The notes under the pieces are model-generated. The model searched no databases. It was not told where the DNA came from and worked only from the letters and a program-made list of their open reading frames with translations. A stretch of 64,000 nucleotides of DNA from positions 1,570-65,569 of the forward strand of contig DDXO01000113.1 of the NCBI GenBank assembly GCA_002347155.1. Reading direction: 5' to 3'. This DNA comes from a candidate division WOR-3 bacterium UBA2258 (GTDB lineage: Bacteria > Hydrothermota > Tepidihabitantia > Tepidihabitantales > Tepidihabitantaceae). Below, in pieces: positions 1-50,249 of the stretch (the first letter of the stretch is position 1; each line of letters opens with the position of its first letter). Both the position numbers and the translations under genes were made by a program.

Positions 1-663
1 AAAGGTTTTTGAGGACCATTGGTTCTCGTCGATGTCGAAACCAACGTGCGAAAACGCGTGAGCCAGTTCGTGCGCAAGCACGACCGCAGTGAGGTCTTCG
101 ATGTCAAAGCCCTCGTTGCGCGCGAGCAGCCCGATGCTCATCCAATATATCTCAATGCGGTGCTCGTCAATGTAGTATAGGCCGAGTGGGTCAACCGGAA
201 GAGCCATGATACGTTTGCCGATATCGTGACCGCGGACAAGCGAGTAGAGCGCATACACGAGCTGCGTGACGCGATCCAGCTCATCCTTGGTGGCTGACGG
301 TGACTTCGGAGCCAGAAGCTGTGGGACCGACTTCCAGTGCTTCGCTATGAGGGTCAGTCCCTGTCCGGTGTAGCGGAGCAAGCCTCGATGCAAGATGAAG
401 TCCCATAGTACCGGGTCGTCGATCCCGGCGATTAGTTTCTTCACTGCGGGTGGCAATCCATCAACGACCTTCACCTTAACCGAAGTCCGGGCGTCGTCGC
501 TACGGGCTAGCCATAACCCAGTCTCTGTGCGCATCGCCTGACGGGTGACTGCGTTCCATAGCTTGACCGTCTTCTTAACCTCATTCTTGACGCGTGGGCC
601 GAGTATGCGCTTGAGTAGATACTCCTCGCGCTGTTCTCTCCGTGTAGCGCCCAGATCACCCAT
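1..663 (-). CDS. hypothetical protein, N-terminal ~221 aa only (gene runs off the window start); HExxH motif (LAHELAHAF) suggests an ImmA/IrrE-like or other Zn-metallopeptidase fold
   Basis: My own translation of the reverse strand from the ATG at 663 (MGDLGATRREQREEYLLKRILGPRV...VLAHELAHAFSHVGFDIDENQWSSKT) reaches position 1 without a stop. It is absent from the supplied ORF track because it has no in-window stop. Confidence 0.35.
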   Translation of the reverse strand, partial: MGDLGATRREQREEYLLKRILGPRVKNEVKKTVKLWNAVTRQAMRTETGLWLARSDDARTSVKVKVVDGLPPAVKKLIAGIDDPVLWDFILHRGLLRYTGQGLTLIAKHWKSVPQLLAPKSPSATKDELDRVTQLVYALYSLVRGHDIGKRIMALPVDPLGLYYIDEHRIEIYWMSIGLLARNEGFDIEDLTAVVLAHELAHAFSHVGFDIDENQWSSKTF

Positions 664-904
664 ATGGACATCCCTCTTTCCTCGTGACTATGCGGTTAGC
701 TCAGCAGACGACAGGGCGGTCGTGGAGCCTGTCCTCACTGGTACAGCGCTCATGGAGGCCCTGCAAGCTGACACGGCGGCGCGGTACATGTCGCTTTTCG
801 AGCGATACTGGGGCGTGCGTTCTCGGAACCGCTTAATTCCGAAGCACTTGCGTGATGAGTAAACCGCATAGTCACATCTTTCCTTCCGGTCCACAGGTAA
901 CGTT

Positions 905-23100: not shown

Positions 23101-25328
23101 AGGCACAGGCTGACCCCTACGGCCGAAACGTCGTCATGGCGAATCTGACCCAACTGCTCACCCGGCAGGGAGAAACGGCAGAGGCCGAGCGCTTGCTGGA
23201 GGAGATTCAGGCATTCGCGGGCCGGAACCCGACCTCGGATCTGGAATTCATGCTCGGCGTATGCCGTGTCCAGATCCTGCTTCGCACCGGGCGCCTCGAA
23301 GCCGCCCGGAACGCGGTTGCCCGGACGCTCCGGCTGGTCAGGCGCGAACGCGACCCGCGCAAACTCGCCCGGCTGCTCACCTTGGCCAGTGAACTGCGGC
23401 TGACGCAAGGGGAATTCGGCCGGGCTGCCGAGGACGCGCGCCGGGCACTGGTCTACCTCAGGGAGCAGGCGTCTTCCAGTGAGTATGCGGTCGCGCTGCG
23501 GTTTTCGGGGCTGGCCAAGTGCATGCTCGACCGCACCGACCGCGGGTTTCAGGAGATCCGCCGGAGTATCGAGCTGCTGAGGGAAACCGGCGTCCGGCAC
23601 GAATTGGCTCTCTCGCTCATGGCCTCGGCCCAGGCGCTCACCGGGTACGGCCGCCAGGAGATGACCCTCGACCTCAAGCTACCGCTTTCCTTCCGACCGG
23701 TTGCCGAACAGGACGTGGACGAGGCGCTGGCCAACCTCAAGGAGGCCCATGCGATCCTCCGCTCGATCGGGGCTCGCCCTGACGCGCAGCGGGCCGATGA
23801 GTTGATGGAGACGGTCAACCACGTATCCGCGACGTTGCGGCTGAAGGCGCGCGGCCGGGAGGAATACCTGGAGGTCTTCTACGAGATCAGCAAGCTCATC
23901 GGGCTGGGTCTGGAGAAGGAAGACTTTCTTGAGCACATCCTAGATTTGGTGATCGACGTCATCAAGGCCGAACGCGGGCTCCTTTTCCTCATGCAGCGCG
24001 GCAAGCTCGTGCCGGCGGCGGGACGGAACATCGACCATACTACGCTGGCAGATGCCACCGCGGTTTCCCGCTCGGTCTTGCGCAAAGTCAAAAGGGGCGA
24101 GACGGTCTTCAGCGCTGATGCACTGACGGATCCCCGTTTCAACAGCGCAAACAGCGTCATGCTCAATAAGATCCGTTCGCTGCTTTGCGTACCGCTCACG
24201 GTCGAGAAGCGCGTGGTGGGCACGATCTACGTCGACAGCCGGGTCACCGCGCATCTCTTTCTTGATGAGGACATGAATCTCCTCGTGTCCGTGGCAAACC
24301 TGTTGGCCGCCACTATCGACAAGTCGGCGGCGTTCAGGAAGCTGCAGGAGGAGATGTCCGTGCTGCGCGAGGATATGCTGGTGGACGCGGCCACCGGGTA
24401 CTTCATGGGCCGCTCCAAGGCGATGAAGGATGTGTACCGGGTGATTGACCGGATCGCCCCGTCCAACTGCACTGTGCTGCTGACCGGCGAAACCGGTACC
24501 GGCAAAGGTGTTCTGGCCCGGCTGATTCACGCGAAGAGCGAACGCCGCAGCCACGAATTCATGTCCATCAACTGCGGCGCTCTGCCCGAGAACCTGTTCG
24601 AGTCCGAACTGTTCGGCCACGCCCGGGGCGCCTTCACCGGCGCGGTCCGGGACAAAGACGGGCTGTTTGAGGCCGCTGTGGGAGGGACGGTCTTCCTGGA
24701 CGAGGTCAGCAACACGACGCTCGGCGTACAGGCTAAGTTGCTCCAGGTCCTCGACGAGAAGGTCGTGCGCCGGGTCGGCGAAACCCAACCGCGGAAGGTG
24801 GACGTACGGCTCGTCTGCGCGACAAACCGGGACCTTCGCCAGGACGTAAAAGCCGGGCGGTTCCGCGAGGACCTCTTCTACCGCGTGAACGGCGTGACTG
24901 TTAACGTCCCGGCATTGCGTGAGCGCTCCGGCGACATCGGGCTGCTCGCCGACTACTTCGTGAAGCGGTACGCTGGACAGATGAAAAAACCGGTAGACCG
25001 GTGCGAGGAAAGGGCGCTTGAGGTGCTTGCTAGCTACGCCTGGCCGGGCAATGTCCGCGAACTGCAGAATGTCATTGAACGCGCTGTCATCATGACCCAG
25101 AGTAACCGGATTGCCATTGATGACCTGGGAGCTCAGTTTGCCGGAATCGAAAGAATGACAGAAGTGCCTCGCGGCAAGCGCGAGCGATTCGAGCGCAGAG
25201 AAGTGGTCAACGCGCTGCGCGTCACCGGCGGGAACGTAAGCAAGGCAGCAGAGTTGCTGTCAGTTCACCGTCGGCAGTTCCAGCGACTGATGCAGCGCTT
25301 CGGAATAGACCGAACGAATCCCACCTAG
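20103..25328 (+). CDS. 1741-aa multidomain regulator: Ser/Thr protein kinase + STAND/AAA ATPase + TPR repeats + GAF + sigma-54 interaction (AAA+) domain + Fis-type HTH
   Basis: Kinase HCDLKPQNILV, DFGFA, GTLGYVAPE. Second P-loop GERGVGKSRLL. TPR-like repeats. GAF region. Sigma-54 activator motifs GETGTGKGVLARLIH, ESELFGHARGAFTGA, GTVFLDEV, CATNRDL. C-terminal HTH GNVSKAAELLSVHRRQFQRLM. Confidence 0.85.
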   Translation: MAQPARFQVSQLVADRFQVLDRLGGGEFTETYKVTDTVANRVLALKTLRTGAPKSAEARLNREFYSLSRFSHPGIVTALDYGSTPDGQPYFTMEFIEGVPINVFFGKGFRPELKTVTVQLLEALARVHAQGLIHCDLKPQNILVADKDGSLRARLIDFGFAGQPALSDADAARGTLGYVAPEVLKGVDTDARADLYSLGLVLYEVIAGQGPGKDRDLRKWLRMQYLSEFKPPREFDENIPEDFASLVMSLIQREPERRPRSAAAVIEQLTHPKGEPAVEIGPPEYSVAPGFVGRGDELAGLKEMLDNASKGRAGSACVTGERGVGKSRLLSEFKFMAQLEGATILSFERASLGARQPSLVEMIRGYLSTSSVADMPAGDESRDAAPGDKYRLFEAVLHGLKEMSASPRVRHSLVLLVDDLELYDSDSLQFLRYLVFGLSNERLMVLVAGVSEARFLDLVAEFGRTGCFQHFQLPPLDQAEVTDLLASLVDEMPGTDELAEWLTRTTGGNSLFVVEAIRALIEGGILSRRGNRWTLVPGALNTYKTPESVADVLRRRLETLAAIELEVLEVSATIAGPFTLAFLRAVEEQQDEAALSGAVGKLRSLGLLRSLVIDGEATFVLSSKMLEAAINEGMRASVRRENHRRVALVIEALHPEKTDQLLFDLAHHYAQAGIEDRAFNYSLQAGTRARERRLSEQALGYFETALALAAQAATAREKVELHERVGELREATGRYPEAIDAYTQGMAIIAADAELAQDQELSSRFRRRVGLVQQKQGHHYEALDNFNQALLLQPDRGAPAYIDTLNDMGWSYYALRGYGRADQLVSAALRLSENLKNRTPAVYSRLSARSFYQLSVLAWSRSDLVLAQQLVERSLEIYAGIDAERTAGEVSQFLATLWWSRGNIAKARDQYQRCLPAQRRSGEVYSLLRSLQGLGIIYQAECEWDKAYNCFAEALNLAERIGDNTAIADLNSNLGTMSEERGDWDQALAAYRRAIELRQQAQADPYGRNVVMANLTQLLTRQGETAEAERLLEEIQAFAGRNPTSDLEFMLGVCRVQILLRTGRLEAARNAVARTLRLVRRERDPRKLARLLTLASELRLTQGEFGRAAEDARRALVYLREQASSSEYAVALRFSGLAKCMLDRTDRGFQEIRRSIELLRETGVRHELALSLMASAQALTGYGRQEMTLDLKLPLSFRPVAEQDVDEALANLKEAHAILRSIGARPDAQRADELMETVNHVSATLRLKARGREEYLEVFYEISKLIGLGLEKEDFLEHILDLVIDVIKAERGLLFLMQRGKLVPAAGRNIDHTTLADATAVSRSVLRKVKRGETVFSADALTDPRFNSANSVMLNKIRSLLCVPLTVEKRVVGTIYVDSRVTAHLFLDEDMNLLVSVANLLAATIDKSAAFRKLQEEMSVLREDMLVDAATGYFMGRSKAMKDVYRVIDRIAPSNCTVLLTGETGTGKGVLARLIHAKSERRSHEFMSINCGALPENLFESELFGHARGAFTGAVRDKDGLFEAAVGGTVFLDEVSNTTLGVQAKLLQVLDEKVVRRVGETQPRKVDVRLVCATNRDLRQDVKAGRFREDLFYRVNGVTVNVPALRERSGDIGLLADYFVKRYAGQMKKPVDRCEERALEVLASYAWPGNVRELQNVIERAVIMTQSNRIAIDDLGAQFAGIERMTEVPRGKRERFERREVVNALRVTGGNVSKAAELLSVHRRQFQRLMQRFGIDRTNPT

Positions 25329-37689: not shown

Positions 37690-39531
37690 TCAAGAGGAAG
37701 CACGGGCCGGACGCAGCAGCGGCCTGAGGGCCCGGAGACGGCGGAGAAGGTCTTGCCGGCCGAGCTTCTGGAGCGCGCGCTGGGCGTAGACGTAGTTGCC
37801 GGGCTCGTGGAGCTGCAGCAGGGCGCGCTGCAGTCTGACTTCTTTCGGGTCGCGCGGCACGTAAAGCGGCTTGCCGGTGAACGGGTCTTTGCCGGTATGC
37901 CAGGCAGCGGCCGCAGCGGTCATTGGCAGCGGCGTGAACTGCTGGACCTGGCGGATAAAGAGCCGCTCGGTGCGCACGAGAAACTCGGCGAGTTCGAGCG
38001 CATCGTCGACGGTCGAGCCGGGATGGCCGGAAATGAAGTAGGGAATCAGGTACTGCTTCCGGCCGAGCCGGCGGTTCGCATCGGCGAAGCGGCGGCGGAA
38101 GGCCAGGTACGAGGCGTGGGAGGGCTTATGCATGGCGGCAAGCACGCGGGAGGAGACGTGCTCCGGTGCAACACGAAGCTGGCCCGAGACGTAGTGGCGG
38201 CAGAGCTGGTCGAGGTAATCGAGGCCGCGCCTGTCGTCGAGCAGGTCGAACCGGAACCCGGTGCCGACCGAGACCCTTTTCACGCCGGGGAGTCTGCGGA
38301 CGGCCTCGAGCGCGGCCAGTTCCTCGCCGGCTGCGAGGCGCAGGTTCGGGCAGCGCTGCGGCCAGGTGCACTCGCGGTCAGGGCAGACGCGGCCGGCTGC
38401 CATCTTGGCGCAGGTCGCGGCGTACATGTTCGCGGTCGGGCCGCCGACGTCGGTGATGTGTCCTTTGAAGCCCTCAAGCCGGGTGATCCGTGCCGCCTCG
38501 GCAAGGATTGACTTCCTGCTCCGCCACTGAATGATGCGGCCCTGGTGAGCGGCGAGGGAGCAGAATGTGCAGGAGCCGAGACAGCCGCGGTGCGACGTTA
38601 TTGAGAACCGGACAGTCTCGAGCGCTGGTATCTTCTCCTTGTAGTCGGGATGCGGCAGGCGCGTGTACGGGAGGTCGTAGACATGATCGAGTTCGTCCTG
38701 CGGCATCGGCTCAGGCAAAGGGTAGTGGACGACCCAGCGGTCCGCGTGCACCTGCGCCACGACTCGGCCGTGAGGATTGTCGGCTTCGTGGTGCCAGAGG
38801 CGGAAAGCTTCATTGAACGCCTCTTTGTCAGTGCTGACCCGCTCGTACGACGGCAGCGCGACCGCATCGAGCGGCGGCTCCCGGCGATTGACGCAACTGC
38901 CGCGGATGCCGTCCAGAAGGGACGGGGCGAGGGGAGAGGGGCAAGGGGCGGGGGGCACGGAACCGAGGCGGCGGGCGACTTCGACCACTGCTCTTTCTGC
39001 CATGCCGTAGAGCAGGATGTCGGCGCGCGTGTCGAGCAGGAGCGAGCGCCGGACCGCGTCTTCCCAGTAGTCGTAGTGCGCGAGCCGGCGCAGGCTGGCC
39101 TCGACGCCGCCGATGACGAGCGGCACGTCCTTGTAGGCTTCGCGCAGGCGATTGCAGTAGACGGTAGTCGCACGGTCGGGGCGCAGGCCCGGTCTGCCGC
39201 CGGGTGAGAAGTCGTCCGCGCGCCGGCGCTGTCGGGTCGGGCTGTGGTTGGCGACGAGCGAATCAACATTGCCGGCCGCGACTCCAAAAAAGAGTCGCGG
39301 CCGGCCGAGAGAAACGAAGTCTTCGAGCCCGGACCAGCGGGGCTGGGCGATGACGCCGACGCGGAAGCCCGCGTCGAGCAGGACCCGCGCTATTACCGCG
39401 CTACCGAACGAAGGGTGGTCGACGTAAGCGTCACCGGTAACGATGATGACGTCACACGATTCCCACCCGAGCGCCGCCATCCCCGGTCGGGACAGCGGCG
39501 GCAATACCGCCGCTGGAGCGGCGGGGTGCAT
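37690..39531 (-). CDS. ygiQ: YgiQ (UPF0313) family radical SAM protein
   Basis: N-terminal [17 protein letters not shown] (YgiQ hallmark); radical [12 protein letters not shown]; length ~613 aa. Confidence 0.85.
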
Positions 39532-40142
39532 CAGGGCAGAGCCTGAAGCTTGGTCTTGGTCGAGTCTGTCAGTCCTTCACCGTCAGTGATCTCGGACAGG
39601 GCCTCCTGCGCCAGTTCGACTGCGTCATCGGTGTTGAGCGCCTTGGGGGCGACGATGTCGAGCAGCTCCTGGGTTTCCCTGTCCCACTCCCGTCCGGCGA
39701 TAGTGTAGTAGGAATCGTCATCGGGCACGTCAAGGCTCTCTTCGTTGCAGCAGAAGGTCGGTACAATCGCGTTCGAGGTCCCGCCGCCGGCAGCAATGAA
39801 GGAGAAGTCCTTGAGTATCATCATGTACTGGTAGTCGGGGATGTTCGGACTGAACACGAGCCCGGCCGGGAACTTGACCTGGACATCGCCGCTGTTGCTG
39901 TTGCTGACAACCAGCCACAGGGGCAGGTCCGACTCCGGGATGACGTCATCGTAGCCGTACATCGAGTCGATGCTGACACCGTTCGGCAACGAGTAGGACT
40001 GAATGTTCTCCGACATGGGCTGGAAAGCTCCGCGCTCCCATGCCCGCTCCGGGGCTTTGCCCTGGTCGCAAGCGCTCCCCGTCAGTAACACGAAGGCTGC
40101 GGTCAGAACGAGCAGACTGAACAGACGAGATGCGTGTTTCAT
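39531..40142 (-). CDS. lipoprotein, paralogue 2 of the CC-motif (TFCCN) family
   Basis: Signal [16 protein letters not shown]; [18 protein letters not shown]; similar to 37072..37677. Confidence 0.5.
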
Positions 40143-40291
40143 GCATACATGATGGACAGGAAAAAACGGATGTCAACCCGCGACAACCGGCTCCTGTCTC
40201 AGGTCAGGGCTGGAAAGCGGCCGGGGAAGTCACCCGGTTGTCATACGGTCAGGCAACCTGGTTACGAGCTGGCCGGAACTGAAGCCCGTCG

Positions 40292-41785
40292 CTAGAGAAG
40301 GACGAGCCTGCGTGTGAAGCACGTTCCCGGCCCTCTGAGCTGGAGGAAGAACGTGCCCGCCGGAACCCGATCGCCGGACTGCAACTTCCGGTCCCAGTTC
40401 CAGAACTGGGGTCCGGGCTCGAGCCACGCCTGAAACACGTTCGCTACGAGGCGGCCGGCGGCGTCGTAGACTGCGAGCGAGTAGCTGCCCGGCCGGCTGA
40501 TGGTCGCGCTGAACTGCACTGTCCCGACCGCGGGGTTGGGCCACGCGGCAGGAAGCCGTAATCGCGCTTCGGTGGCCGGGTCCTCGGGAGAGGAGAGCCA
40601 CGGCGCGCTAAACCAGACGCCCAGGGGTCCGGCGTCGGACTGCTGGCTGTAGAACAGACCCGGCAGCCGCATCGGCGCGTGCGGCACATAGACGAGCTTT
40701 GGCGGGAGCCTGGATAGTGGACGCCGGCTGACCTTGACCGGTTCCAGCCAGCCGTCGAGGTTAAGGGAGTTAGCGCACGTCCACCATGCCGCGACTGAGT
40801 CTCCGTTGCGCCGGCTGCTGGAGCTGTAGCAGAGACTGACATAGTCGTTTGGAGCGGACCGGTCAACGGCAAGGCAGGGCTGCTGCTCGTCACGGAACGA
40901 GTTACCGAACGGCAGACCCGGGGTCCAGGTCGAACCGCCGTCCGCGCTCGCCGAGTACTCGAGGTCGAGCACCGCCGTATCGCGGCGCCCGGCGGTGTAG
41001 AAAATCCAGACTGCGGCCTGGAATTCCGGGCTGGAGTCGGCCTGTACTACGGTCGGTTCGAGGCACTGACCCGCGAAGGTGTCGCTCACGACCCGGTATG
41101 TAGACCAGTAGCCGGGCATCGCGTAGTGGCGGTTATAGGAATAGTGAATCTCGCCGCCATTGAGCGCGTAGCGCCAGGCGCAGTGAACCGTAGAGCCGTT
41201 CGTGTAGGAAACGCATGGGTCCCACGCGTTCCACCAGTCGGTTCCCGCCTCCCAGGACGCGCCGTAGTCGAGTGACCGGGTGAAGGTGCCGGTGCGGCCG
41301 GTACGGTGCTCGTTTGCATAAAGGCAGTAAAGGTAGTAGTGGTCGTCGCGGTCGAGCGCTGCCGAAAAGTCGTCAACCGTGTCCGGACCCACCGCGACCG
41401 GCGCCAGTGAGAACAGGCCCGAGTCAGGGCCGATCCGTGCCAGCCACAAGTCACCGGCACCCCCGGCCACGAGCAGGAAAATGTAGAGAAACGAGGAGTC
41501 GCCCTGGCCGAAGAGCAGTTGCAGCTTCCGAACTGCCGAGTCGGCGCGGACCGCGCCGCGGGTCTGCCAACTGGAGCCGAAATCACTCGAGCGATAGAGC
41601 CCGACTGTGTGGTCGGCGTTCGCAACTGCCGCCCAGATAACCCCGGCGGTGTCGGCCACCGCATCAAAGGCACTGACCTTGCCGGTGTCGACCAGGACTT
41701 CCGATTCCCAGAACCCGGCGAGCGCGACCGACCCGGCCGCCAGCAGAGACAGGATGGTACCTGCGCTTCGCACCGACATATTCAA
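40292..41785 (-). CDS. secreted BNR/Asp-box repeat (sialidase-like beta-propeller) protein with T9SS-type C-terminal sorting domain
   Basis: Asp-box motifs SSDFGSSW, SLDYGASW, SADGGSTW. C-terminus LAVYDAAGRLVANV...GTFFLQLRGPGTCFTRRLVLL. Confidence 0.65.
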   Translation of the reverse strand: MNMSVRSAGTILSLLAAGSVALAGFWESEVLVDTGKVSAFDAVADTAGVIWAAVANADHTVGLYRSSDFGSSWQTRGAVRADSAVRKLQLLFGQGDSSFLYIFLLVAGGAGDLWLARIGPDSGLFSLAPVAVGPDTVDDFSAALDRDDHYYLYCLYANEHRTGRTGTFTRSLDYGASWEAGTDWWNAWDPCVSYTNGSTVHCAWRYALNGGEIHYSYNRHYAMPGYWSTYRVVSDTFAGQCLEPTVVQADSSPEFQAAVWIFYTAGRRDTAVLDLEYSASADGGSTWTPGLPFGNSFRDEQQPCLAVDRSAPNDYVSLCYSSSSRRNGDSVAAWWTCANSLNLDGWLEPVKVSRRPLSRLPPKLVYVPHAPMRLPGLFYSQQSDAGPLGVWFSAPWLSSPEDPATEARLRLPAAWPNPAVGTVQFSATISRPGSYSLAVYDAAGRLVANVFQAWLEPGPQFWNWDRKLQSGDRVPAGTFFLQLRGPGTCFTRRLVLL

Positions 41786-41936
41786 GCTTCGACGCTGACG
41801 AAGTCAAGGGCAGAAGTGAAGAGGGAGACCGTGGGACAACAGCCCTGGCTGAGACGTCGAGGACTGACGTCGGAGTTGGAAGGGCCGGCGGAGTTGGATT
41901 GACAGCCGGAACCGACCGGTTACATTTAAGGCAAGC

Positions 41937-44225
41937 ATGACGCGATGCAGCAGCGTTGTTATAGCCGGCGGGCGGTGGCCCACGCCTGGACGGCTTGCGG
42001 TCACAGGCAGCCTGCTGCTCGCAATCGCCCACGCCGGAATCCTCGCGCCGCAATGGTCGCGTCCGCTCGATGCCGGTCTGGTGTCGGCCGCGGTCGGCGC
42101 GAGCACGTACAATACCGAGCGCCTGTTCCTGCTGCTAGCCGACGGGCGCGTCGTCGCGGTCTCGGCAGGCGATAGTCTCCGCGAAGTCGGCCGAGCGCCA
42201 ACCGGCGCAACTGCACTGGTAGCGCTGTCGACGCCCCCGCTCGGCGCGTCGGACATCGCGCTGTTCCTGACGGTCAAAACCCCCGGCGCCTGCGACCTTG
42301 TGGCGTGGAACCGCAACGGACAGGAACTCTGGAGGTCGCCCATTGCCGGGATGACTGCGGTCGACAGCCTCTTTCTGGTCGCCGAGGCCGAGAACCGGGC
42401 CGAGTTCTGCGCCTGGCAACGAGGCGAGCCCTGGCTGGTCATTGTCGGCAAGCGGCTCTGGCAGTACTCGGCGAGCGCCATCCGTCTCAAGCCTGGGTTC
42501 ACTCCGCGCGACGCGCTGGTCTGTGACTTGAACCGCGATGGCTCGCCCGAGCTCGTGTTCTTCGACGGCGCGCGACTAGCGGTCTTCCACGTCCGGCAGG
42601 AGCGTGAGCTCCGCTGCCAGTGGCCGACCTCAGGGCTCGCCGCAGAGCTCATCCCAAAGCCGCTTATCGCCTGCACGGTGTTCGACTCCATCCCGATGCT
42701 GCTGGTCGTTACCGGCGAGACCCTGCGCTATGTCAACGCCATGACTGGGGACGAAGAACACCGGCTCGTTGCCGGCTCCGCCTCTGGCCTGCCCGGCAGG
42801 GTCGATGTGGTCGCCGCCCGCGGTGCGGCCGCCTATGCGGCCGGCGCCGACTCCTCGGCGCGCTGCTACGTGGCGCGGCTCGCGGCGAGCGGCCCGGCGC
42901 GGGAGCACACGCTTCTGCGACTGGCGCCCGGCGCGCGGGTCAGGTCTCTTGCCATGCTTGGCGACTGGCCGATGGTTCAGGTCCGCGGCGCAGGCGAAAC
43001 GGATGACCTGGTCCTCTGCGCTCCGGGGCTGACCGGCACGGCTGACAGATCGCCGGGATACGGCCGCGTCCGGCTCCTGCGTATCATCCAGCTACGAATC
43101 GACGAAGACACCTTTCCCGACCTGGTTGTGCTGCGCACGGCCGGTGACGCGCGCTGGCGGATTGACGTCTTCGCAAATCGGGTCGGGCAGCTCGCCGACG
43201 AACTGCAGCGGGCACGTCAGGTCCTGCTGCGCGCGGCCCTTGGCCAGAGCGATAACGCGGTGCGGCGCGCCGTCCGCCGCGTGCGCGAACTCGAGCGCGA
43301 AACGGGCGTGGGCGACTTCGGCCAGGAGCGAAGCGTCCTTGACCGGTTCCAGACGTCGGCCCGACGGCGCCGGACTGTTGCCTACGCCGGCGCGCTGGTC
43401 GCCGCCCTGTTGGCCGCTGGCCTCGGCTGGCTGGTGCTTAGGCGCCGCCGCAGATCGCCGGTTCAGCAGATTGAGAAGCTGCCTGTCGCGGACCGGGTGG
43501 CGCTGGCCGCGGACCTGATAGCGCTCGACCACAACTTCATGTCCAAGGGCAACCGGCCGGCAGGGTTTGAGCGGCTTATCGAAATCCGCAACCGCTATGG
43601 TCTCGATCGCGACCGCGACCTCGGCCAGGCCGGGCAAGTGAGCAGCGAGCGGTTGCCGAGCGTCTACGCCGGAGCCATCACCCGGCTCATCGACTCCACT
43701 ACCACTGTGCGACTGCTCGATCTCATCCAGAACGCGGCCCGGAGTTCGCCGCGCGGCCACGAATTCGAGTTCCTTGAACTCAGCCCGGCAGAACTCAGGC
43801 GGCTTGAGCGCCGACCCGGCATCAGGCTGATCGCAGTTGCCAACCACGAATCCCCGGACTATCTGCGCCACTTCCGCGTCTTCGCTAACCCCGAGGTGCG
43901 GGGAACGCTTGAGCACATCGTACTCGACCACATCCGCCACGCCGCCAACTGGGCCCACATCATCACCAGCTACACGGTCAACACCCAGTGGAACCGCCGT
44001 CTGCTCATTTCGTTCCGGTCGGACAGCCCGCATGTTATCCCGTTCGCAGACCCGCGAGCTCACATCACGAGCCGGCTGCGGGAACTCCAGGCGATGCTTC
44101 GCCCCGCAGTTGACGTCCCGCGCGACGCGGGCGCGCTGGTCGGCCCGCTCGAGCGACTCTGGCTTTCGATAGCCGACTACATCGCAGTGCTCGAGGAAGC
44201 CCGGGCGCGGACTTCAGTCCCTTGA
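41937..44225 (+). CDS. membrane protein: N-terminal extracytoplasmic repeat domain, single TM (LVAALLAAGLGWLVL), ~270-aa cytoplasmic domain of unknown function
   Basis: Hydrophobic signal/TM near the N-terminus, TM near residue 490 followed by RRRRR. Possible sensor partner of the downstream sigma-54 activator. Confidence 0.55.
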   Translation: MTRCSSVVIAGGRWPTPGRLAVTGSLLLAIAHAGILAPQWSRPLDAGLVSAAVGASTYNTERLFLLLADGRVVAVSAGDSLREVGRAPTGATALVALSTPPLGASDIALFLTVKTPGACDLVAWNRNGQELWRSPIAGMTAVDSLFLVAEAENRAEFCAWQRGEPWLVIVGKRLWQYSASAIRLKPGFTPRDALVCDLNRDGSPELVFFDGARLAVFHVRQERELRCQWPTSGLAAELIPKPLIACTVFDSIPMLLVVTGETLRYVNAMTGDEEHRLVAGSASGLPGRVDVVAARGAAAYAAGADSSARCYVARLAASGPAREHTLLRLAPGARVRSLAMLGDWPMVQVRGAGETDDLVLCAPGLTGTADRSPGYGRVRLLRIIQLRIDEDTFPDLVVLRTAGDARWRIDVFANRVGQLADELQRARQVLLRAALGQSDNAVRRAVRRVRELERETGVGDFGQERSVLDRFQTSARRRRTVAYAGALVAALLAAGLGWLVLRRRRRSPVQQIEKLPVADRVALAADLIALDHNFMSKGNRPAGFERLIEIRNRYGLDRDRDLGQAGQVSSERLPSVYAGAITRLIDSTTTVRLLDLIQNAARSSPRGHEFEFLELSPAELRRLERRPGIRLIAVANHESPDYLRHFRVFANPEVRGTLEHIVLDHIRHAANWAHIITSYTVNTQWNRRLLISFRSDSPHVIPFADPRAHITSRLRELQAMLRPAVDVPRDAGALVGPLERLWLSIADYIAVLEEARARTSVP

Positions 44226-44281
44226 CTTACGGCTGGCGCTCCATACACTTAGCCAGTTGAGCGCTACCCGGATTCCACACG

Positions 44282-45928
44282 ATGGCTAAGCCGGTCATCC
44301 TGGTGGTCGACGACCTTGCGACCAGCTTCGAGAGCCTGGTCAGCAGCATCAGCCGGTACGACGGCGGCCGGCTGGCACGCGAGTTCGACTACATTCACCT
44401 CGACTGCTTCTCCGTGCTTCGGCAATGGTACAACCGGAACCGGTCCCGTTTCGTGTCGCTGATAGTCCAGGACGTGGACTTCAGCCACATCCAGGACGAA
44501 AAGAAACTGGTTGACTATCCGGACATCCTCAAACCGCTGCAGCGTACACTCGACATCAAAGCCCTGCAGGGTTTCCTCATCTACGGTTACCTCCGCCAGG
44601 GCAACATCGACCGCATTGCTCCGGTCATCTTCGTCTCCTGCCGCATCGGAATGGAATCAACCAGCGAGTTCTCTGAGTTCATCATCCGGCCTGGGTATGG
44701 ACTCTGCTCCTTCGTGCCGGAGAGCGCGGTCGGGGACCAGTACTACCCGAAGATTGCCGAGTCCATCGACGCCCTTGCCATCCGGCCCCTGACCGACGAA
44801 CAGCGCAGCCACTGGACCAACGAGCACCATCTGGTGATCGGCCGGGCGCGCAAAATGGCTTTCCTGGCCTACGAGATCGAACGGATTGGCCCGTCCGACG
44901 CCACCGTCCTCTTGCTGGGCGGGCCGGGTGTGGGCAAGGAACTCGTCGCCAATGCGCTGCACCGCTGCAGCTACCGCCATGTCGAAAACGACCCCGGTCG
45001 GGAATACCCGCTGACTGTCAACATGGCCGCGCTGAGCCCCAACCTGGTAGAAGACGAACTCTTCGGGCACCAGCGCGGAGCATTCACCGGCGCAACCGGA
45101 GAACGGGCGGGAATCCTCGAGTCGGCGCGGGGCTCGACCGTCTTTCTCGACGAGATCGGAGACATTGGGCAGGATACGCAGGTCAAACTCCTTCGGGCGA
45201 TGGAATACCACCGGATCAAGCGTGTCGGCAGCTCGCGCGAAATGAGCATTGACATGCGCATCATCGCCGCCACCAACCGGACCGTACCCGAGCTCCAGAC
45301 ACGGTTCCGACCCGATTTCTACGGTCGGCTGGTCCAGCACTGCATCCCGGTGCCGTCGATCCGCGAACGCTGGGAAAACGAGCCGGGCGACACTGTCGAG
45401 GCCGATATTGAAGACCTCGCCCAGTTCACAATCCGGACTATGAATGCCAGCCCCAGGCACAAACGCCACCTCGGAATCGAGCGCACTGCGGTCAAATTGA
45501 TCCGGCAGGTCGTGCAGCAGCACGTTGACGGCGGCGAAGACCTGCTCGAAGGAAACATCCGGACGCTCCGGAACATCATCGAGCGCGCGTACGAACGTGC
45601 TCAGTACGACGGCAGCGCTGAAATCGGCCTCGGGCATGTGATGCCCGCGCTCGGCATGGTCAGGCTCCTCAACGCCCAGACGCCACGCCCTGCCGTTGCC
45701 GGACCCAGCCAGCAAGACCAGACTGCCGTACCCGCTGCCATCCCGACGCCGACCACCGATCCGTTTGCGCTGCGTAACCTTGTCGGAACCCTCAATCTGC
45801 AGGACATAGAGCGTCGAGCCATCAAAGAAGCCCTTGAAAAGACGGGCAACAACCAGACTCACGCTGCCGAACTTCTCGGCATTCACCGCGATACCCTCCG
45901 CCGCAAAATGGCGGAGCACGAACTATGA
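44282..45928 (+). CDS. sigma-54-dependent transcriptional regulator (NtrC family) with divergent N-terminal receiver-like domain
   Basis: ILVVDD receiver start. AAA+ motifs LLLGGPGVGKELVANALH, EDELFGHQRGAFTGA, GSTVFLDEIGD, RIIAATN. Fis-type HTH TGNNQTHAAELLGIHRDTLRRKM. Confidence 0.85.
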   Translation: MAKPVILVVDDLATSFESLVSSISRYDGGRLAREFDYIHLDCFSVLRQWYNRNRSRFVSLIVQDVDFSHIQDEKKLVDYPDILKPLQRTLDIKALQGFLIYGYLRQGNIDRIAPVIFVSCRIGMESTSEFSEFIIRPGYGLCSFVPESAVGDQYYPKIAESIDALAIRPLTDEQRSHWTNEHHLVIGRARKMAFLAYEIERIGPSDATVLLLGGPGVGKELVANALHRCSYRHVENDPGREYPLTVNMAALSPNLVEDELFGHQRGAFTGATGERAGILESARGSTVFLDEIGDIGQDTQVKLLRAMEYHRIKRVGSSREMSIDMRIIAATNRTVPELQTRFRPDFYGRLVQHCIPVPSIRERWENEPGDTVEADIEDLAQFTIRTMNASPRHKRHLGIERTAVKLIRQVVQQHVDGGEDLLEGNIRTLRNIIERAYERAQYDGSAEIGLGHVMPALGMVRLLNAQTPRPAVAGPSQQDQTAVPAAIPTPTTDPFALRNLVGTLNLQDIERRAIKEALEKTGNNQTHAAELLGIHRDTLRRKMAEHEL

Positions 45929-46071
45929 TCCTACGTCCGTTGCATTTTGCTGCAGCAGACTGAAGCAGACTGCTGATTCTACGACCAGCATGCGGTCCTT
46001 CGGCGTCGGCTCGCGAAGAGGCAAGTTCTTACTTTACAGTATGTTAAATCGACGGGTCAACGCAAAGCAGG

Positions 46072-46087
46072 TTGGCATGGCATTTGC
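46072..46087 (+). promoter_or_regulatory. sigma-54 (-24/-12) promoter TGGCAT-N5-TTGCA
   Basis: ttGGcatggcattTGCa with GG and GC separated by 10 nt. It lies 300 bp upstream of the GT4 gene and directly downstream of a sigma-54 activator gene. Confidence 0.55.
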
Positions 46088-46386
46088 ACTTGTCCAAGCA
46101 CATGCTGGGATAGCGGTGGGCCCTGAGAGTCAGACCGAGCCAAGCTGAGGTTCTCTCCAGGGAAGGAAGCGCTCATAAGTCCCCTCCTCACCAGTCAACA
46201 CTCTCGACGGGGACCGACAAAGAACGCGGCGCACCAGAGCCTACGGTACGCCGCGTATCTTTTTGGGGTTTCTCCCGTCGCCCGGGTATTTTCGCGGCCT
46301 GTCAAGTCCGGGCATCGCCTCAAAGCAACCGCCTGTCAGCCCGAATCCTTGACCCGCCCCACATCTGCCAATAATATGAGCGTCCC

Positions 46387-47496
46387 ATGCGAATGCTGAT
46401 TGTGAACTGGCGTTGCGCCAGGAACCCCTTGGCCGGCGGCGCGGAGATCTACTTGCAGGAGGTGTTCTCCCGCTTGGTCAGCCGCGGCCACGGGGTGACT
46501 CTGCTCAGCGCACGTTTCCCCGGGTCGCAGCCGGAGGACGTCATTGAAGGCATCCGGATCATCCGCGCGGGCGGCAAGCTGACATTCAACTTCACGGCGG
46601 CACGCGTGGTCGGGCCTCTCGCCGAATCACTGAACGCGGACATCGTCATCGACGACCTGAACAAGATCCCCTTCTACTCTCCTTGGCACACTGGACGACC
46701 CGTCCTAGCCCTCCTGATGCACCTGTTCCGGGGCAGCATCTTCCGCGAGGTATTGCCGCCGATGGCGACCTACGTGTGGCTGGCCGAGACGATGATCCCG
46801 CTCGCATACAGACAGTGCCGGTTTGCCGTGCTCTCGGAGAGCTCCAAGAGCGATACGGTGAGAGTGGGTATCGCGCCGGACCGGATAGCTGTGATTCCAC
46901 CCGGTACCGACTTCAACCGGTTCAGCCCCGACACCACGATACCCCGCGAACGCCTCGTTCTGCATGTCGGCCGGCTCAAGCGGTACAAGGCAACTGACCA
47001 CCTGCTGCAAGCCGCCCGGCTGCTGAAGGAACGGGGCGTGGAGTTCACGACCGTGATAGTCGGCGACGGCGACGACAAACCGAGGTTGGAAGCGCTGGCC
47101 GTCAAACTCGGGCTGGGTGGGAGTATCCGGTTCACCGGGTTCGTACCGGAAGCGGAGAAGGTGAGCTGGTACCGCCGGGCTGCGGTGCTTGCCGAGAACT
47201 CGATCAAGGAAGGCTGGGGGCTGATAGTGATGGAGGCAAACGCCTGCGGAACGCCGGTGGTTGTCGCCGACTCGCCCGGCCTGCGCGATTCGTCGCGAGA
47301 TGGCATGAACGGACTCATGTACCCGTACGGTGACGTAGCCGCGCTGGCCGAGAAGCTGGAGAAGCTTTTGTCAGACGCCGCACTCCGCAACCGCCTGGGC
47401 GAGCAGGCGATTGCCTGGTCGCAGCAATACACCTGGGACGGCGCGGCAGCGGCGATGGAGCGCGTAATCGAGCAAACGATCAACGAAGGACGATGA
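46387..47496 (+). CDS. GT4-family glycosyltransferase
   Basis: C-terminal EGWGLIVMEANACGTPVVVADSPGLRD (GT4 E-x7-E region); ~369 aa. Confidence 0.8.
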   Translation: MRMLIVNWRCARNPLAGGAEIYLQEVFSRLVSRGHGVTLLSARFPGSQPEDVIEGIRIIRAGGKLTFNFTAARVVGPLAESLNADIVIDDLNKIPFYSPWHTGRPVLALLMHLFRGSIFREVLPPMATYVWLAETMIPLAYRQCRFAVLSESSKSDTVRVGIAPDRIAVIPPGTDFNRFSPDTTIPRERLVLHVGRLKRYKATDHLLQAARLLKERGVEFTTVIVGDGDDKPRLEALAVKLGLGGSIRFTGFVPEAEKVSWYRRAAVLAENSIKEGWGLIVMEANACGTPVVVADSPGLRDSSRDGMNGLMYPYGDVAALAEKLEKLLSDAALRNRLGEQAIAWSQQYTWDGAAAAMERVIEQTINEGR

Positions 47497-48509
47497 AGGA
47501 AGAACTGACGCCCGCGCTTGAAGTACAGTCGGTGGTCAAGAACTTCCGCCGCGGCCGCGGCCTTAAGCGGAAAATCACCCGGGCGGTGGACGGGGCGACG
47601 CTGACGCTGCCCCGCGGCGAGCTGTTCGGCCTGCTGGGCCCGAACGGCGCCGGTAAGACCACGCTCGTACGCTGCATCGCGACGCTCTTGATTCCCGACG
47701 CCGGCACCATCAAAGTGCTCGGCCACGACGCCTTCAAAGACTCGCTCTACTGCCGCCAGCGAATCGGGCTTCTGACCTCGGGTGAACGGACGCTGTACTG
47801 GAAGCTCTCGGCGCGCGACAACCTCAACTTCTTCGCCGCGCTGTATGGACTGACCGGTAAGGCCCGAGACAGACGGATTGACTACCTGATCGAGCTCCTC
47901 GGTCTCAAAGAGGTCGAGCGGGACCGGCTCGAGCGCTACTCGTCGGGGATGAAGCAGAAGGTGAGTCTGGCCCGGGCCATCCTGCATGACCCCGAGCTCA
48001 TCCTGCTCGACGAACCATCGCTCGGGCTCGACCCGCAGTTCGCCCGCTTCATCCGGCAATTCATCAAGGACGAGCTGAACCGGAAGCAGGGGAAGACGAT
48101 CCTGCTGACCACTCACTACATGGACGAGGCCGACGAGCTCTGCCGGCGTATTGCCTTCATCAACAAGGGCAGGATAGTCAACGTCAAGACCCCCGAGCAG
48201 TACAAACGCGACATCCCGCATACCGAGGTACTGGAAATCCGCCTCCAAGGGCAGCCCGACGCCGCACCGCTTCAGGCCCTGCCCGGGGTCGAGCGTGTCG
48301 CGTCCGATTTCAAAGACGGCGTGACCACGCTCAAGGTAGTGGCCCCGCGGGCCGAGGCGGTCCTGTCGGAGGCCATCGAGCACCTGCGCAAGGGGGGCCG
48401 GATTCTCGGGATTGACATCAAACAGCCGACGCTCGAGGACGTGTTCCTGTACGTCACCGGTACATCGCTCGGCGCCGATACCGCCGAGCACAAACCGGTA
48501 GCCGAATGA
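47493..48509 (+). CDS. ABC transporter ATP-binding protein
   Basis: Walker A GPNGAGKTT; signature YSSGMKQKVSLARA; Walker B ILLDEPSLGLD. Confidence 0.85.
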   Translation: MKEELTPALEVQSVVKNFRRGRGLKRKITRAVDGATLTLPRGELFGLLGPNGAGKTTLVRCIATLLIPDAGTIKVLGHDAFKDSLYCRQRIGLLTSGERTLYWKLSARDNLNFFAALYGLTGKARDRRIDYLIELLGLKEVERDRLERYSSGMKQKVSLARAILHDPELILLDEPSLGLDPQFARFIRQFIKDELNRKQGKTILLTTHYMDEADELCRRIAFINKGRIVNVKTPEQYKRDIPHTEVLEIRLQGQPDAAPLQALPGVERVASDFKDGVTTLKVVAPRAEAVLSEAIEHLRKGGRILGIDIKQPTLEDVFLYVTGTSLGADTAEHKPVAE

Positions 48510-49336
48510 GCCTCACCGCGACCGCCGCCGCCATCCGGGCCGAGATGGTCAAGACGATACGCATCTACTTCTCGTATCCCGTAATCGTAGTATTCTGGGC
48601 GATTTTCCCGGTGCTTTGGGTCCTGCCGTTCCTGTTCCAGGGCAAGGCGCTGGTGGGTTCCTACGACAGCGCCGCATTCGAGCGACTGACCGGCTCGGGC
48701 AACTACATGGCCTTCATTCTCATCGGCGCGATGGTGTCGAACTTCGTCTTCTCCGGACTCTGGGGAGTCGGCAACAGCCTGCGCGAGGAAACCTACTGGG
48801 GCACGATGGAGTACATTATCGCCTCGCCCACGCATCCGCTGGTCGTCCTCATCGGCAAAACCCTGGCCGAGGCCGCAGTGACAACGTGCATCGTGGCGCT
48901 GCAGGCGACCATCATCAGCCTGCTGCCGTTCGGCATTTCGTTCACCGTCGCCAAGGTGCTGCCCGTCCTGTTGCTCGTTGCCCTGCTGATGGTCGGGTTC
49001 TACGGCTTCGCCATCGCCTTTGCCGGCTTCACCCTGCTCATCAAAGAAGCCCACGGCTGGGTCCATACGCTGGAATGGGTCTTCTTTCTCTTCTCGCCCA
49101 TCCGTTACCCGGTCCAGGTGAACATCATCACCGAGTTCGTCAGCAAGCTGATACCGCTGACCTGGGCGCTTGTCGCCATCCGCGCCATCATCCTGCTCAA
49201 CCAGCGCGACGTCGGGCTCTGGAACATCGTCGGCATCCTGCTGGCGATGGATGCCGCGCTGCTTGTCGGCGGCTACTTCACGTTCGTGGCGCTTGAGCGC
49301 AAAACCCGGCGCGACGGCACCGTGGGGATGCATTAG
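48506..49336 (+). CDS. ABC-2 type transporter permease
   Basis: Six hydrophobic segments; operon with the upstream ATPase (4-nt overlap). Confidence 0.7.
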   Translation: MSLTATAAAIRAEMVKTIRIYFSYPVIVVFWAIFPVLWVLPFLFQGKALVGSYDSAAFERLTGSGNYMAFILIGAMVSNFVFSGLWGVGNSLREETYWGTMEYIIASPTHPLVVLIGKTLAEAAVTTCIVALQATIISLLPFGISFTVAKVLPVLLLVALLMVGFYGFAIAFAGFTLLIKEAHGWVHTLEWVFFLFSPIRYPVQVNIITEFVSKLIPLTWALVAIRAIILLNQRDVGLWNIVGILLAMDAALLVGGYFTFVALERKTRRDGTVGMH

Positions 49337-49361
49337 GAAAGTGACGAGCGACAGATTTCGA

Positions 49362-50249
49362 ATGACGAATGACGGAACCGGACAATCGACAGCCGACCCT
49401 TGTCATTCGTCACTCCCTCGGCGGTTGCGACACTACGCCAGCGCGGTCTGGGCCGAGAATATCAAAGAGTGGAAACTCGAACTTACCTACCCGCTCGACT
49501 TTCTCCGCAGCCTGATTGACCCGGTCGTCTACCTGCTGCCTTACGTCTTCTACGGCATCGCGCTCGTGGGCGGACGGTTTTCCCCGAACCTTGAGAAGCT
49601 CGTCGGGACCACCGACATCGTCAGTTTCATCACCATCGGCTACGTCTTCATCGGGTTCATGAACATGGCACTCTGGGCAATGGGATTCAGCCTGCGCAAG
49701 GAACAGATGTACGGCACGCTCGAAGCGGTCTTCGCCGCGCCGGTACCGCGGTGGATTTTCACGATGGGGATGTCCATGCACTCGATACTCCACCAGTTCC
49801 TTATGATTCTGGTGCAACTGCTTTTCATACTCGCGGTCTTCAGCCTCAAAGTCAACCCGCTCGGGTTGCTGCCGGCGCTGGCGATGATCGGCCTGATGCT
49901 GATCGCACTCTACGGTATCGGCATGATAATGGCTTCGACCACGCTGCTCTTCAAACAGGGCTGGCTCATCTCCGAGGCGCTCGGCAGCCTGCTGATGGTG
50001 GTGACGCCGATTGCCTACCCGCTCGCGGTCCTGCCGTTGTTCATGCAGAAGGTCGCGCTCGCGGTGCCGACCACCTACGGCATCCTCGCCTCGCGCCACT
50101 TCCTGATGGGCGAGCAGATGGGATTCTCGGTCCTGACCGCTTTCGTGCGCGTGGCGGTCCTGTGCATTGTCTGGGTTGTGTTCGGGCTCGTCGTCTTCGC
50201 CCTGATTGACCGCTACACCCGCCGCAGCGGAACGCTGAGTCACTACTGA
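49362..50249 (+). CDS. ABC-2 type transporter permease (second)
   Basis: Start trimmed to the ATG at 49362 (MTNDGTG...), because the longer track ORF overlaps the previous gene out of frame. Multiple TM segments. Confidence 0.6.
   Translation: MTNDGTGQSTADPCHSSLPRRLRHYASAVWAENIKEWKLELTYPLDFLRSLIDPVVYLLPYVFYGIALVGGRFSPNLEKLVGTTDIVSFITIGYVFIGFMNMALWAMGFSLRKEQMYGTLEAVFAAPVPRWIFTMGMSMHSILHQFLMILVQLLFILAVFSLKVNPLGLLPALAMIGLMLIALYGIGMIMASTTLLFKQGWLISEALGSLLMVVTPIAYPLAVLPLFMQKVALAVPTTYGILASRHFLMGEQMGFSVLTAFVRVAVLCIVWVVFGLVVFALIDRYTRRSGTLSHY

Follow-up and report, generated by a model that had tools for sequence, protein, structure and literature searches.

What does a sigma-54 promoter serve when it lies between the gene for a sigma-54 activator and a run of glycosyltransferase and exporter genes? 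The question is raised by a 64,000-nt stretch of DNA (hereafter the window, to whose numbering positions refer unless another locus is named) from the candidate division WOR-3 bacterium UBA2258 (GCA_002347155.1, contig DDXO01000113.1). In this stretch a gene for a 762-residue single-pass membrane protein is followed by one for a bacterial enhancer-binding protein (bEBP) of the NtrC family, a -24/-12 promoter element, and genes for a GT4 glycosyltransferase and an ABC-2 exporter. All of these were listed in the original prediction, which was made from this sequence, and all are present. That prediction had read them as a regulated surface-glycan module in which the GT4/ABC-2 operon is the sigma-54 target. 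Three features that it overlooked between the promoter and GT4 speak against this: an RNA gene, a hairpin followed by a T-run, and a promoter of the sigma-70 type. We favor instead, with moderate confidence, a signal-to-riboregulator module, in which a bEBP-driven sigma-54 promoter would make a stand-alone RNA of ~165 nt that acts in trans by base pairing. As far as sequence can tell, the RNA is a new, previously uncatalogued family of a known architectural kind.

Related loci came from collections of genomes and metagenomes and from look-ups of identical proteins. All belong to one phylum and most are close relatives; bEBP orthologues spanning the whole protein reach down to 44% identity, and the organism names given are WOR-3 or unclassified bacterium. 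Three distant loci, which we call L036, L037 and L038, were retrieved as full-length bEBP orthologues (63%, 54% and 45% identical, respectively). The stretch from the bEBP gene to GT4 was aligned in 12 loci, where it consists of five conserved blocks amid unalignable DNA; these include the upstream element, the -24/-12 element, the RNA, and the promoter and start of GT4.

The promoter sequence TGGCATGGCATTTGCA matches the consensus TGGCAY-N5-TTGCW exactly, and nothing else in the window fits it, even when one mismatch is tolerated. Shuffled windows contain 0.10 exact matches on average (at least one in 9 of 100 shuffles), so the match taken alone is suggestive. What makes it convincing is its conservation: TGG, the 9-nt spacer and TGC are kept at the same offset in 18 of 18 related loci that reach that far; every locus extending ~1.85 kb beyond the membrane-protein gene carries the element at that offset. 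In the distant loci it reads TGGAACAGGAGTTGCA (L036), TGGCATGCCCAGTGCA (L037) and TGGCACAAGTTTTGCT (L038). Judged by this conservation, the -24/-12 element is a genuine sigma-54 promoter, and that part of the original prediction stands. The spacings differ slightly from those first given: the promoter lies 314 bp, not 300, from the GT4 ATG (46387), and the gap between the membrane-protein and bEBP genes is 56 nt rather than 57. Between the end of the bEBP gene and the promoter there are 144 bp.

A conserved TGC/GCA-rich block directly past the bEBP stop codon, within otherwise unalignable intergenic DNA, is a candidate binding site for the activator. An upstream activating sequence had been suggested for the region 80–150 bp ahead of the -24 element, and the candidate falls there: 16 of 18 loci have the motif GYAWWWTGCNGCNG at -110, -121/-122 or -131/-133 relative to the -24 element; the motif was derived from these same sequences, which makes its enrichment circular but not its fixed, phased position in unalignable DNA. 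The positions step by ~10–11 bp, about one helical turn, as expected if a bound activator must face the promoter. L036 and L038 carry other repeats at the corresponding place. Since no orthologue, down to 45% identity, separates the bEBP gene from the promoter, and given the phased upstream site, the adjacent bEBP is very probably the activator of this promoter. An A/T-rich stretch, AAGTTCTTACTTTACAGTATGTTAAAT (46022–46050), stands between the activator site and the -24 element and has a few A/T columns conserved across loci; it could be an intrinsic bend or a site resembling those of integration host factor, aiding looping.

Downstream of the promoter, conservation begins at ~46099, the predicted start site, and stops at a hairpin, with both flanks unalignable. 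This onset fits a start 11–12 nt downstream of the -12 GC. We placed the 5' end of the RNA from promoter geometry and the onset of conservation, and its 3' end from the hairpin and T-run. Averaged over 11 close loci, identity to the window copy is 88.7% for the RNA and 66.3% for third-codon positions of the bEBP gene. Each locus has one copy, always after the bEBP gene, and a search of the window with the covariance model found no second one. The same model recovers the RNA from L036, L037 and L038 with scores of 104.7, 38.6 and 61.5 bits (E values from 1e-26 to 2e-8), although the 5' domain is unalignable in L037 and L038.

The RNAalifold consensus structure consists of a 5' multi-stem domain, a GUCCCC/GGGGAC hairpin with a 22-nt C/U-rich loop, and a terminal GC hairpin. 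The close clade has 14 distinct copies. We assessed covariation in 16 distinct full-length copies aligned by the covariance model, since MAFFT misplaced the 5' domain of the distant ones. Across the 46 pairs, 96.4% of cells hold a standard pair, compared with 40–51% when the 3' partners are slid by 1–3 columns. In twelve pairs both partners have changed; column shuffles gave 4.0±1.6 such pairs (none of 500 reached 12) and the slid controls 1–6. These figures overstate independence, as the alignment was fitted to the covariance model and the sequences are related.

The GUCCCC/GGGGAC stem is present in all 16 copies. Its loop CCUCCUCACCAGUCAACACUCU is identical in 12 of the 13 aligned copies from the clade that has the membrane protein (one change in L007, two in L023), and L038, with its 45%-identical bEBP, retains CCUCACCAGUC...CACUCU. 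The 3' hairpin has 13 pairs (46224–46256), nine of them G-C, and is followed by ATCTTTTTGGGG in a signal scan; 5 of 11 pairs covary. The window, L007, L014, L028 and L038 have a good T-run behind it, while that of L001, L036 and L037 is poor. The loop of this hairpin (46236–46244) keeps GCCCA(C/A) even in L036, L037 and L038 while the stem covaries, which is unusual for a hairpin acting solely as a terminator. In the 5' domain, L028 (10220–10227) and L035 (6873–6880) carry an 8-nt insertion, GTTAGACG / GTAAGACA, between window positions 46128 and 46129; it resembles a tandem duplication of the adjoining GTCAGACC.

Rfam 15 gave no family match at gathering score anywhere in the window. Nor did the RNA match a family at E≤10 in 45929–46386, or at E≤0.5 in L036–L038; what was returned was noise and an unrelated group II intron. 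Three other identities were tried and rejected. The conserved block does not encode a small protein, its sole open reading frame (ORF) being three codons long (ATG-CTG-GGA-TAG) and not conserved. A signal recognition particle RNA was prompted by GGAAGGAAGC, and no model of that RNA scored. A CsrA sponge was discarded because the GGA triplets are not conserved.

One could still hold that the block works as DNA, as a protein-binding region or a mobile-element remnant, next to a coincidental -24/-12 match and with no functional RNA; after all, 9 of 100 shuffled windows contained an exact promoter match by chance. We find this hardly credible. The promoter is at its fixed offset in all 18 loci, including the distant ones with their differing surroundings, and the block lies on one strand, in single copy, always adjoining the gene for a sigma-54 activator. 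In addition, compensatory changes keep the helices, which a DNA-binding site does not need.

The distant loci show what the promoter and RNA travel with. In each, a gap of 380–530 nt after the bEBP gene holds a -24/-12 element and then a recognizable RNA homologue. The genes on either side are different: L036 has a PKD/beta-propeller protein downstream and a 35%-identical homologue of the membrane protein upstream; L037, on a 3.26-Mb contig, a hypothetical protein downstream and an unrelated 221-residue ORF upstream; and L038 a PmbA/TldD protein downstream and an unrelated 108-residue ORF upstream. GT4 follows the RNA in the close loci only. Because they persist in L036–L038 despite unrelated downstream genes, the promoter and RNA appear to travel with the activator and not with the glycan and exporter genes. 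Adjacency within the close clade carries little functional weight, as the conserved neighborhood there is far larger than the module. Upstream of the membrane-protein gene, for example, a divergent block (37690–41785, minus strand) is syntenic in all close loci and encodes a radical-SAM protein (Radical_SAM_N/DUF3362), a hypothetical protein of ~200 residues and a protein of ~490 residues with a faint FlgD-Ig match. As a separate observation, L037, which is in the complete WOR-3 genome CP070680.1, carries a group II intron at 1–1632 (minus strand), ~6.4 kb upstream of the bEBP gene; its D1–D4 domains score 138 and 71 bits in Rfam, and it has a reverse transcriptase/maturase ORF.

These comparisons bear on a further possibility, that the sigma-54 promoter feeds the downstream genes after all and the RNA is their long 5' leader or attenuator, riboswitch-like, with the hairpin as a conditional terminator. 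A structured, conserved RNA with a terminator hairpin ahead of a gene is the classic layout of a riboswitch, every locus has its downstream gene in the same orientation, and the U-tracts are imperfect in several. L037, moreover, has no sigma-70 promoter before the next gene by the criteria of our scan, whereas in L036 and L038 a sigma-70-like promoter follows the RNA, ahead of that gene. Yet the downstream family switches from GT4 to a PKD protein, a hypothetical protein or PmbA/TldD, with the RNA remaining beside the bEBP gene. In the close loci the spacer between the RNA hairpin and the GT4 promoter is unconserved and has an insertion or deletion of ~130 nt, the invariant sigma-70-type promoter between hairpin and GT4 leaves essentially no leader, and no alternative anti-terminator pairing is apparent in the RNAalifold consensus. 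A leader would be expected to precede a fixed class of gene with no promoter intervening, and the loci do not follow that pattern. They conform instead to the layout of bEBP-adjacent small RNAs (sRNAs): a non-coding gene flanking the activator gene, with its own -24/-12 element and terminator and no conserved ORF. We therefore consider a leader improbable.

The promoter ahead of GT4 is itself one of the conserved blocks. Its TTGACC and TAATAT hexamers are invariant or nearly so in the 12 aligned loci, and 46349–46395 is almost invariant throughout. It ends 9 nt ahead of the ATG/GTG start, so the GT4 mRNA would be leaderless or nearly so. If both the RNA hairpin and this promoter work, the sigma-54 transcript would be ~165 nt long and GT4 would be transcribed separately. 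With the RNA in between, a promoter of their own and unrelated genes in their place in L036–L038, the GT4/ABC-2 genes most likely form a separate transcription unit outside the sigma-54 module, and neither their assignment as the sigma-54 target nor the notion of a regulated surface-glycan module is supported. The '~130-nt' difference in the spacer is an insertion in L013, L025, L026, L028 and L035 (between window positions 46276 and 46325) that is absent from the other seven loci; its copies are partly alike, sharing ...TTGATG... and CCGCGC stretches. The content of the 'glycan operon' also varies, since in L025 (12044–13377) and L026 (5891–7224) genes for a GNAT acetyltransferase and an AadA_C-domain protein are inserted between GT4 and the ABC ATPase. 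Coordinates of all features are collected in the table.

Table. Features of the sigma-54 activator locus and its neighbors in the window.
Feature	Position	Strand	Details	Basis
Sigma-70-like promoter candidate for the membrane-protein/bEBP gene pair	41899-41926	+	TTGACA-16-TACATT; weak	10/12 consensus matches
Membrane protein, 762 aa	41937-44225	+	propeller ~60-412, transmembrane segment ~480-500, cytoplasmic ~510-762	
NtrC-family bEBP, 548 aa	44282-45928	+	Sigma54_activat PF00158, E 4e-46; HTH_8 PF02954, E 4e-16	Pfam
Putative upstream activator site (enhancer)	45942-45975	no strand	GCATTTTGCTGCAG, then CAGCAG-N11-CTGCTG dyad; 131 bp upstream of -24	
Sigma-54 promoter	46073-46088	+	TGGCATGGCATTTGCA, TGGCAT-N5-TTGCA; -24 GG 46074-46075, -12 GC 46086-46087	
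Gene for conserved structured non-coding RNA, ~165-170 nt	46099-46268	+	predicted ends	
Hairpin GUCCCC...GGGGAC	46179-46214	+	C/U-rich loop CCUCCUCACCAGUCAACACUCU (46183-46204); candidate seed or binding region	
3' hairpin and ATCTTTTT	46224-46264	+	11-12 bp, GC-rich, 9-nt loop with GCCYAC; probable intrinsic terminator	
Sigma-70-type promoter for the GT4 operon	46349-46377	+	TTGACC-17-TAATAT	consensus scan and conservation
GT4 glycosyltransferase	46387-47496	+		Pfam
ABC ATPase	47493-48509	+		Pfam
Two ABC-2 permeases	48506-49336, ~49336-50249	+		Pfam

What, then, would feed a signal into the bEBP? The protein comprises a divergent receiver fold (residues 1 to ~170, with an insertion at 65–92), a sigma-54 AAA+ domain with an intact GAFTGA motif (residues 266–271 of the translation), and a C-terminal helix-turn-helix of the Fis type. 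The receiver is hard to see by sequence: the first ~185 residues gave no Pfam match at E≤10 and no match in the PDB by profile search, no more than one strand aligned to CheY in hhalign, and a protein search with the N-terminal domain alone returned fragments only. An AlphaFold2 (AF2) model built from 50 sequences (mean predicted local distance difference test score, pLDDT, 85) has a clear (beta-alpha)5 N-terminal domain, and its top Foldseek matches are NtrX, NtrC1, NtrC4, LuxO and FleQ, over 450–550 columns. Reading the model's secondary structure by eye, without structural superposition, we assigned D10, D11, D64 and S119 in the window bEBP as candidate residues of a phospho-acceptor site, with D10, D11 and D64 as its presumed acidic pocket, positions that are 74–86% conserved across 50 orthologues; by the same reading, the beta5 position is V145-P146 instead of K-P, and no lysine was seen. 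On this model the receiver is atypical and possibly not phosphorylated. The window encodes a second sigma-54 activator elsewhere, a 1,741-residue ORF (20103–25328, plus strand) that joins a Ser/Thr protein kinase, a STAND-type AAA_16 NTPase, TPR and GAF domains, a sigma-54 AAA+ domain with GAFTGA and a Fis-type helix-turn-helix, making it a very large signaling activator in one polypeptide. No match to the -24/-12 consensus lies near it.

The membrane protein encoded upstream has an N-terminal hydrophobic segment and one transmembrane segment. No Pfam family matched it at E≤0.001, and at E≤10 there were faint FG-GAP/PQQ matches only. Histidine-kinase domains (HisKA/DHp, HATPase_c) gave no Pfam match at E≤10 either, and a 20-sequence profile hit no PDB chain at E≤10, kinases included. 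In the AF2 model the beta-propeller ectodomain is confident, and the C-terminus has pLDDT below 50, so that a highly diverged kinase fold could not be judged there; the Foldseek matches are generic WD40/YncE propellers and describe the propeller only. The cytoplasmic third is conserved and has invariant residues, for instance a DHNFxSKGN motif. The family comprises 49 homologue clusters, 53–100% identical, none with a Pfam domain, and WOR-3 is the sole organism named. The original prediction had proposed this protein, lacking kinase motifs, as the signaling partner of the activator. The lack of such motifs held up in our searches, and in the close clade as well as in L036 (35% identity, E 2e-97) the gene lies directly against that of the bEBP; in L037 and L038, however, no homologue stands next to the bEBP gene. 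It is thus plausible that the membrane protein is an input partner of the bEBP in part of the lineage, and not obligatory for the module.

In the riboregulator mechanism that we favor, the bEBP would bind the conserved site just beyond its own stop codon (~45942–45975) and, by DNA looping, remodel sigma-54 RNA polymerase at the promoter. Transcription would start at ~46099 and stop at the GC hairpin and U-tract, at ~46265. The RNA would then be a trans-acting sRNA whose C/U-rich loop, single-stranded and near-invariant, does the base pairing, possibly with purine-rich, Shine-Dalgarno-like regions of mRNAs; the CCUCC of this loop resembles an anti-Shine-Dalgarno sequence. The input would be the atypical receiver-fold domain, which in part of the clade the beta-propeller membrane protein would control by some means other than a canonical histidine kinase. 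We infer the pairing of activator with promoter, the transcript ends, base pairing in trans and the role of the membrane protein from sequence comparison, and regard the base-pairing step as weak.

Several observations weigh against this mechanism, at different steps. No RpoN-box peptide was found in the window or the related loci, a negative of little weight given the ~0.5 Mb covered; the two GAFTGA activators of this window, and the many full-length bEBP clusters with WOR-3 as their named source, indirectly favor the presence of rpoN. With all loci from one phylum and mostly close relatives, the covariation rests on few independent events. Partial read-through into the next gene is possible, given the poor U-tract in several loci and a next gene that is co-oriented everywhere. 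The C/U-rich loop is replaced by a different loop in L037. RNAduplex comparison of the loop with start regions in the window gave its top scores on spurious ORFs, within random background, and no target emerged from the 64 kb. Finally, the start regions of local genes carry little Shine-Dalgarno signal, which weakens the anti-Shine-Dalgarno idea.

There is a serious alternative, which we nonetheless judge unlikely: the same stand-alone RNA might bind or sequester a protein, like CrcZ with Hfq/Crc, 6S or CsrB, or have some other structural or catalytic role. Its near-invariance extends over much of the RNA, including paired regions and the 3' loop GCCCAC, beyond what a short seed calls for, and conservation of the RNA far exceeds that of neutral sites. 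CrcZ, the best-studied RNA of the same layout, is a protein sponge (PMC5113210). On the other hand, there are no short repeats of the sponge type, the GGA-like triplets at 46161–46168 are not conserved in L023, L036 and L038, the 5' domain is unalignable in L037 and L038, and the RNA is single-copy at each locus. It also has no similarity to Rfam families, including 6S, CsrB/RsmY and CrcZ.

A sigma-54 activator gene with an sRNA gene beside it is a familiar arrangement: luxO-qrr1 of Vibrio and glrK/glrR-glmY of Enterobacteria have a similar layout. For three further systems it rests on experiment. In all Pseudomonas genomes the sRNA gene crcZ lies directly downstream of the activator gene cbrB, and the gap separating them holds a CbrB site and an RpoN promoter (PMC5113210). 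NrsZ of Pseudomonas aeruginosa, an sRNA dependent on RpoN and a bEBP, is encoded in the intergenic region adjoining the activator gene ntrC (PMC4253122). In Myxococcus and related myxobacteria, pxr lies downstream of nla19, the gene for a sigma-54-dependent response regulator, and has its own predicted sigma-54 promoter; the Pxr RNA folds into several stem-loops, of which the 5' stems are highly conserved and the rest varies (PMC5568312).

The WOR-3 locus resembles cbrB-crcZ in plan, as an activator gene, a short gap with a binding site and a -24/-12 element, and then an sRNA gene, in a linkage conserved across the taxon. The parts differ. CrcZ is a protein sponge of ~400 nt with repeated A-rich Hfq/Crc motifs, while the WOR-3 RNA, from another phylum, has ~165 nt and no such repeats; the receiver of CbrB is canonical and works with a histidine kinase, while that of the WOR-3 bEBP appears atypical. 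Pxr, at ~108 nt, is unrelated in sequence to the WOR-3 RNA, which has no Rfam match, and occurs as tandem paralogues in some genera, in contrast to the single WOR-3 copy per locus. As to ntrC-nrsZ and luxO-qrr1, Foldseek sets the WOR-3 bEBP beside LuxO, NtrC1 and NtrX, but the NtrC, LuxO and GlrR activators are phosphorylated by canonical histidine kinases, whereas the WOR-3 receiver, read by eye, lacks the conserved lysine and has a variable acidic pocket, and the membrane protein encoded beside it has no kinase domain by our searches. FleQ, among the top structural matches, joins a degenerate, non-phosphorylated receiver fold whose phospho-acceptor site is incomplete to a sigma-54 AAA+ domain and a helix-turn-helix, a combination that the WOR-3 bEBP may share; c-di-GMP and FleN control FleQ, its targets are flagellar and exopolysaccharide genes, and nothing here points to that ligand or those targets. 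Because it has no Rfam match, we regard the WOR-3 RNA as an analogue and not a member of the CrcZ, NrsZ, Pxr, Qrr1 or GlmY families.

A literature search on WOR-3 and sigma-54 returned nothing, and we found no described WOR-3 riboregulators; the data examined include no cultured representatives of WOR-3. For this candidate phylum the locus adds an uncatalogued RNA family together with its promoter, a putative enhancer site and an apparently dedicated activator, and it corrects the kind of annotation by proximity that would assign the GT4/ABC-2 genes to the sigma-54 regulon. It would not amount to a new principle unless the RNA or the kinase-less input works in an unexpected way, for which we see a slim chance. 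In that event, which we rate as a similarly long shot, the pathway would do without a canonical phosphorelay and its sole direct output would be an ancient, phylum-wide RNA functioning beyond antisense pairing; the near-total conservation of the RNA, 3' loop included, would then reflect binding to a core cellular machine or a role as a structured effector. If the module works as we propose, the RNA would be a single-output reporter of an environmental signal received through the propeller ectodomain and the atypical receiver, and would be tractable for heterologous reconstitution. As a phylogenetically remote case of a sigma-54 activator gene with its own sRNA, the WOR-3 locus lends support to the idea of a general design that has evolved repeatedly.

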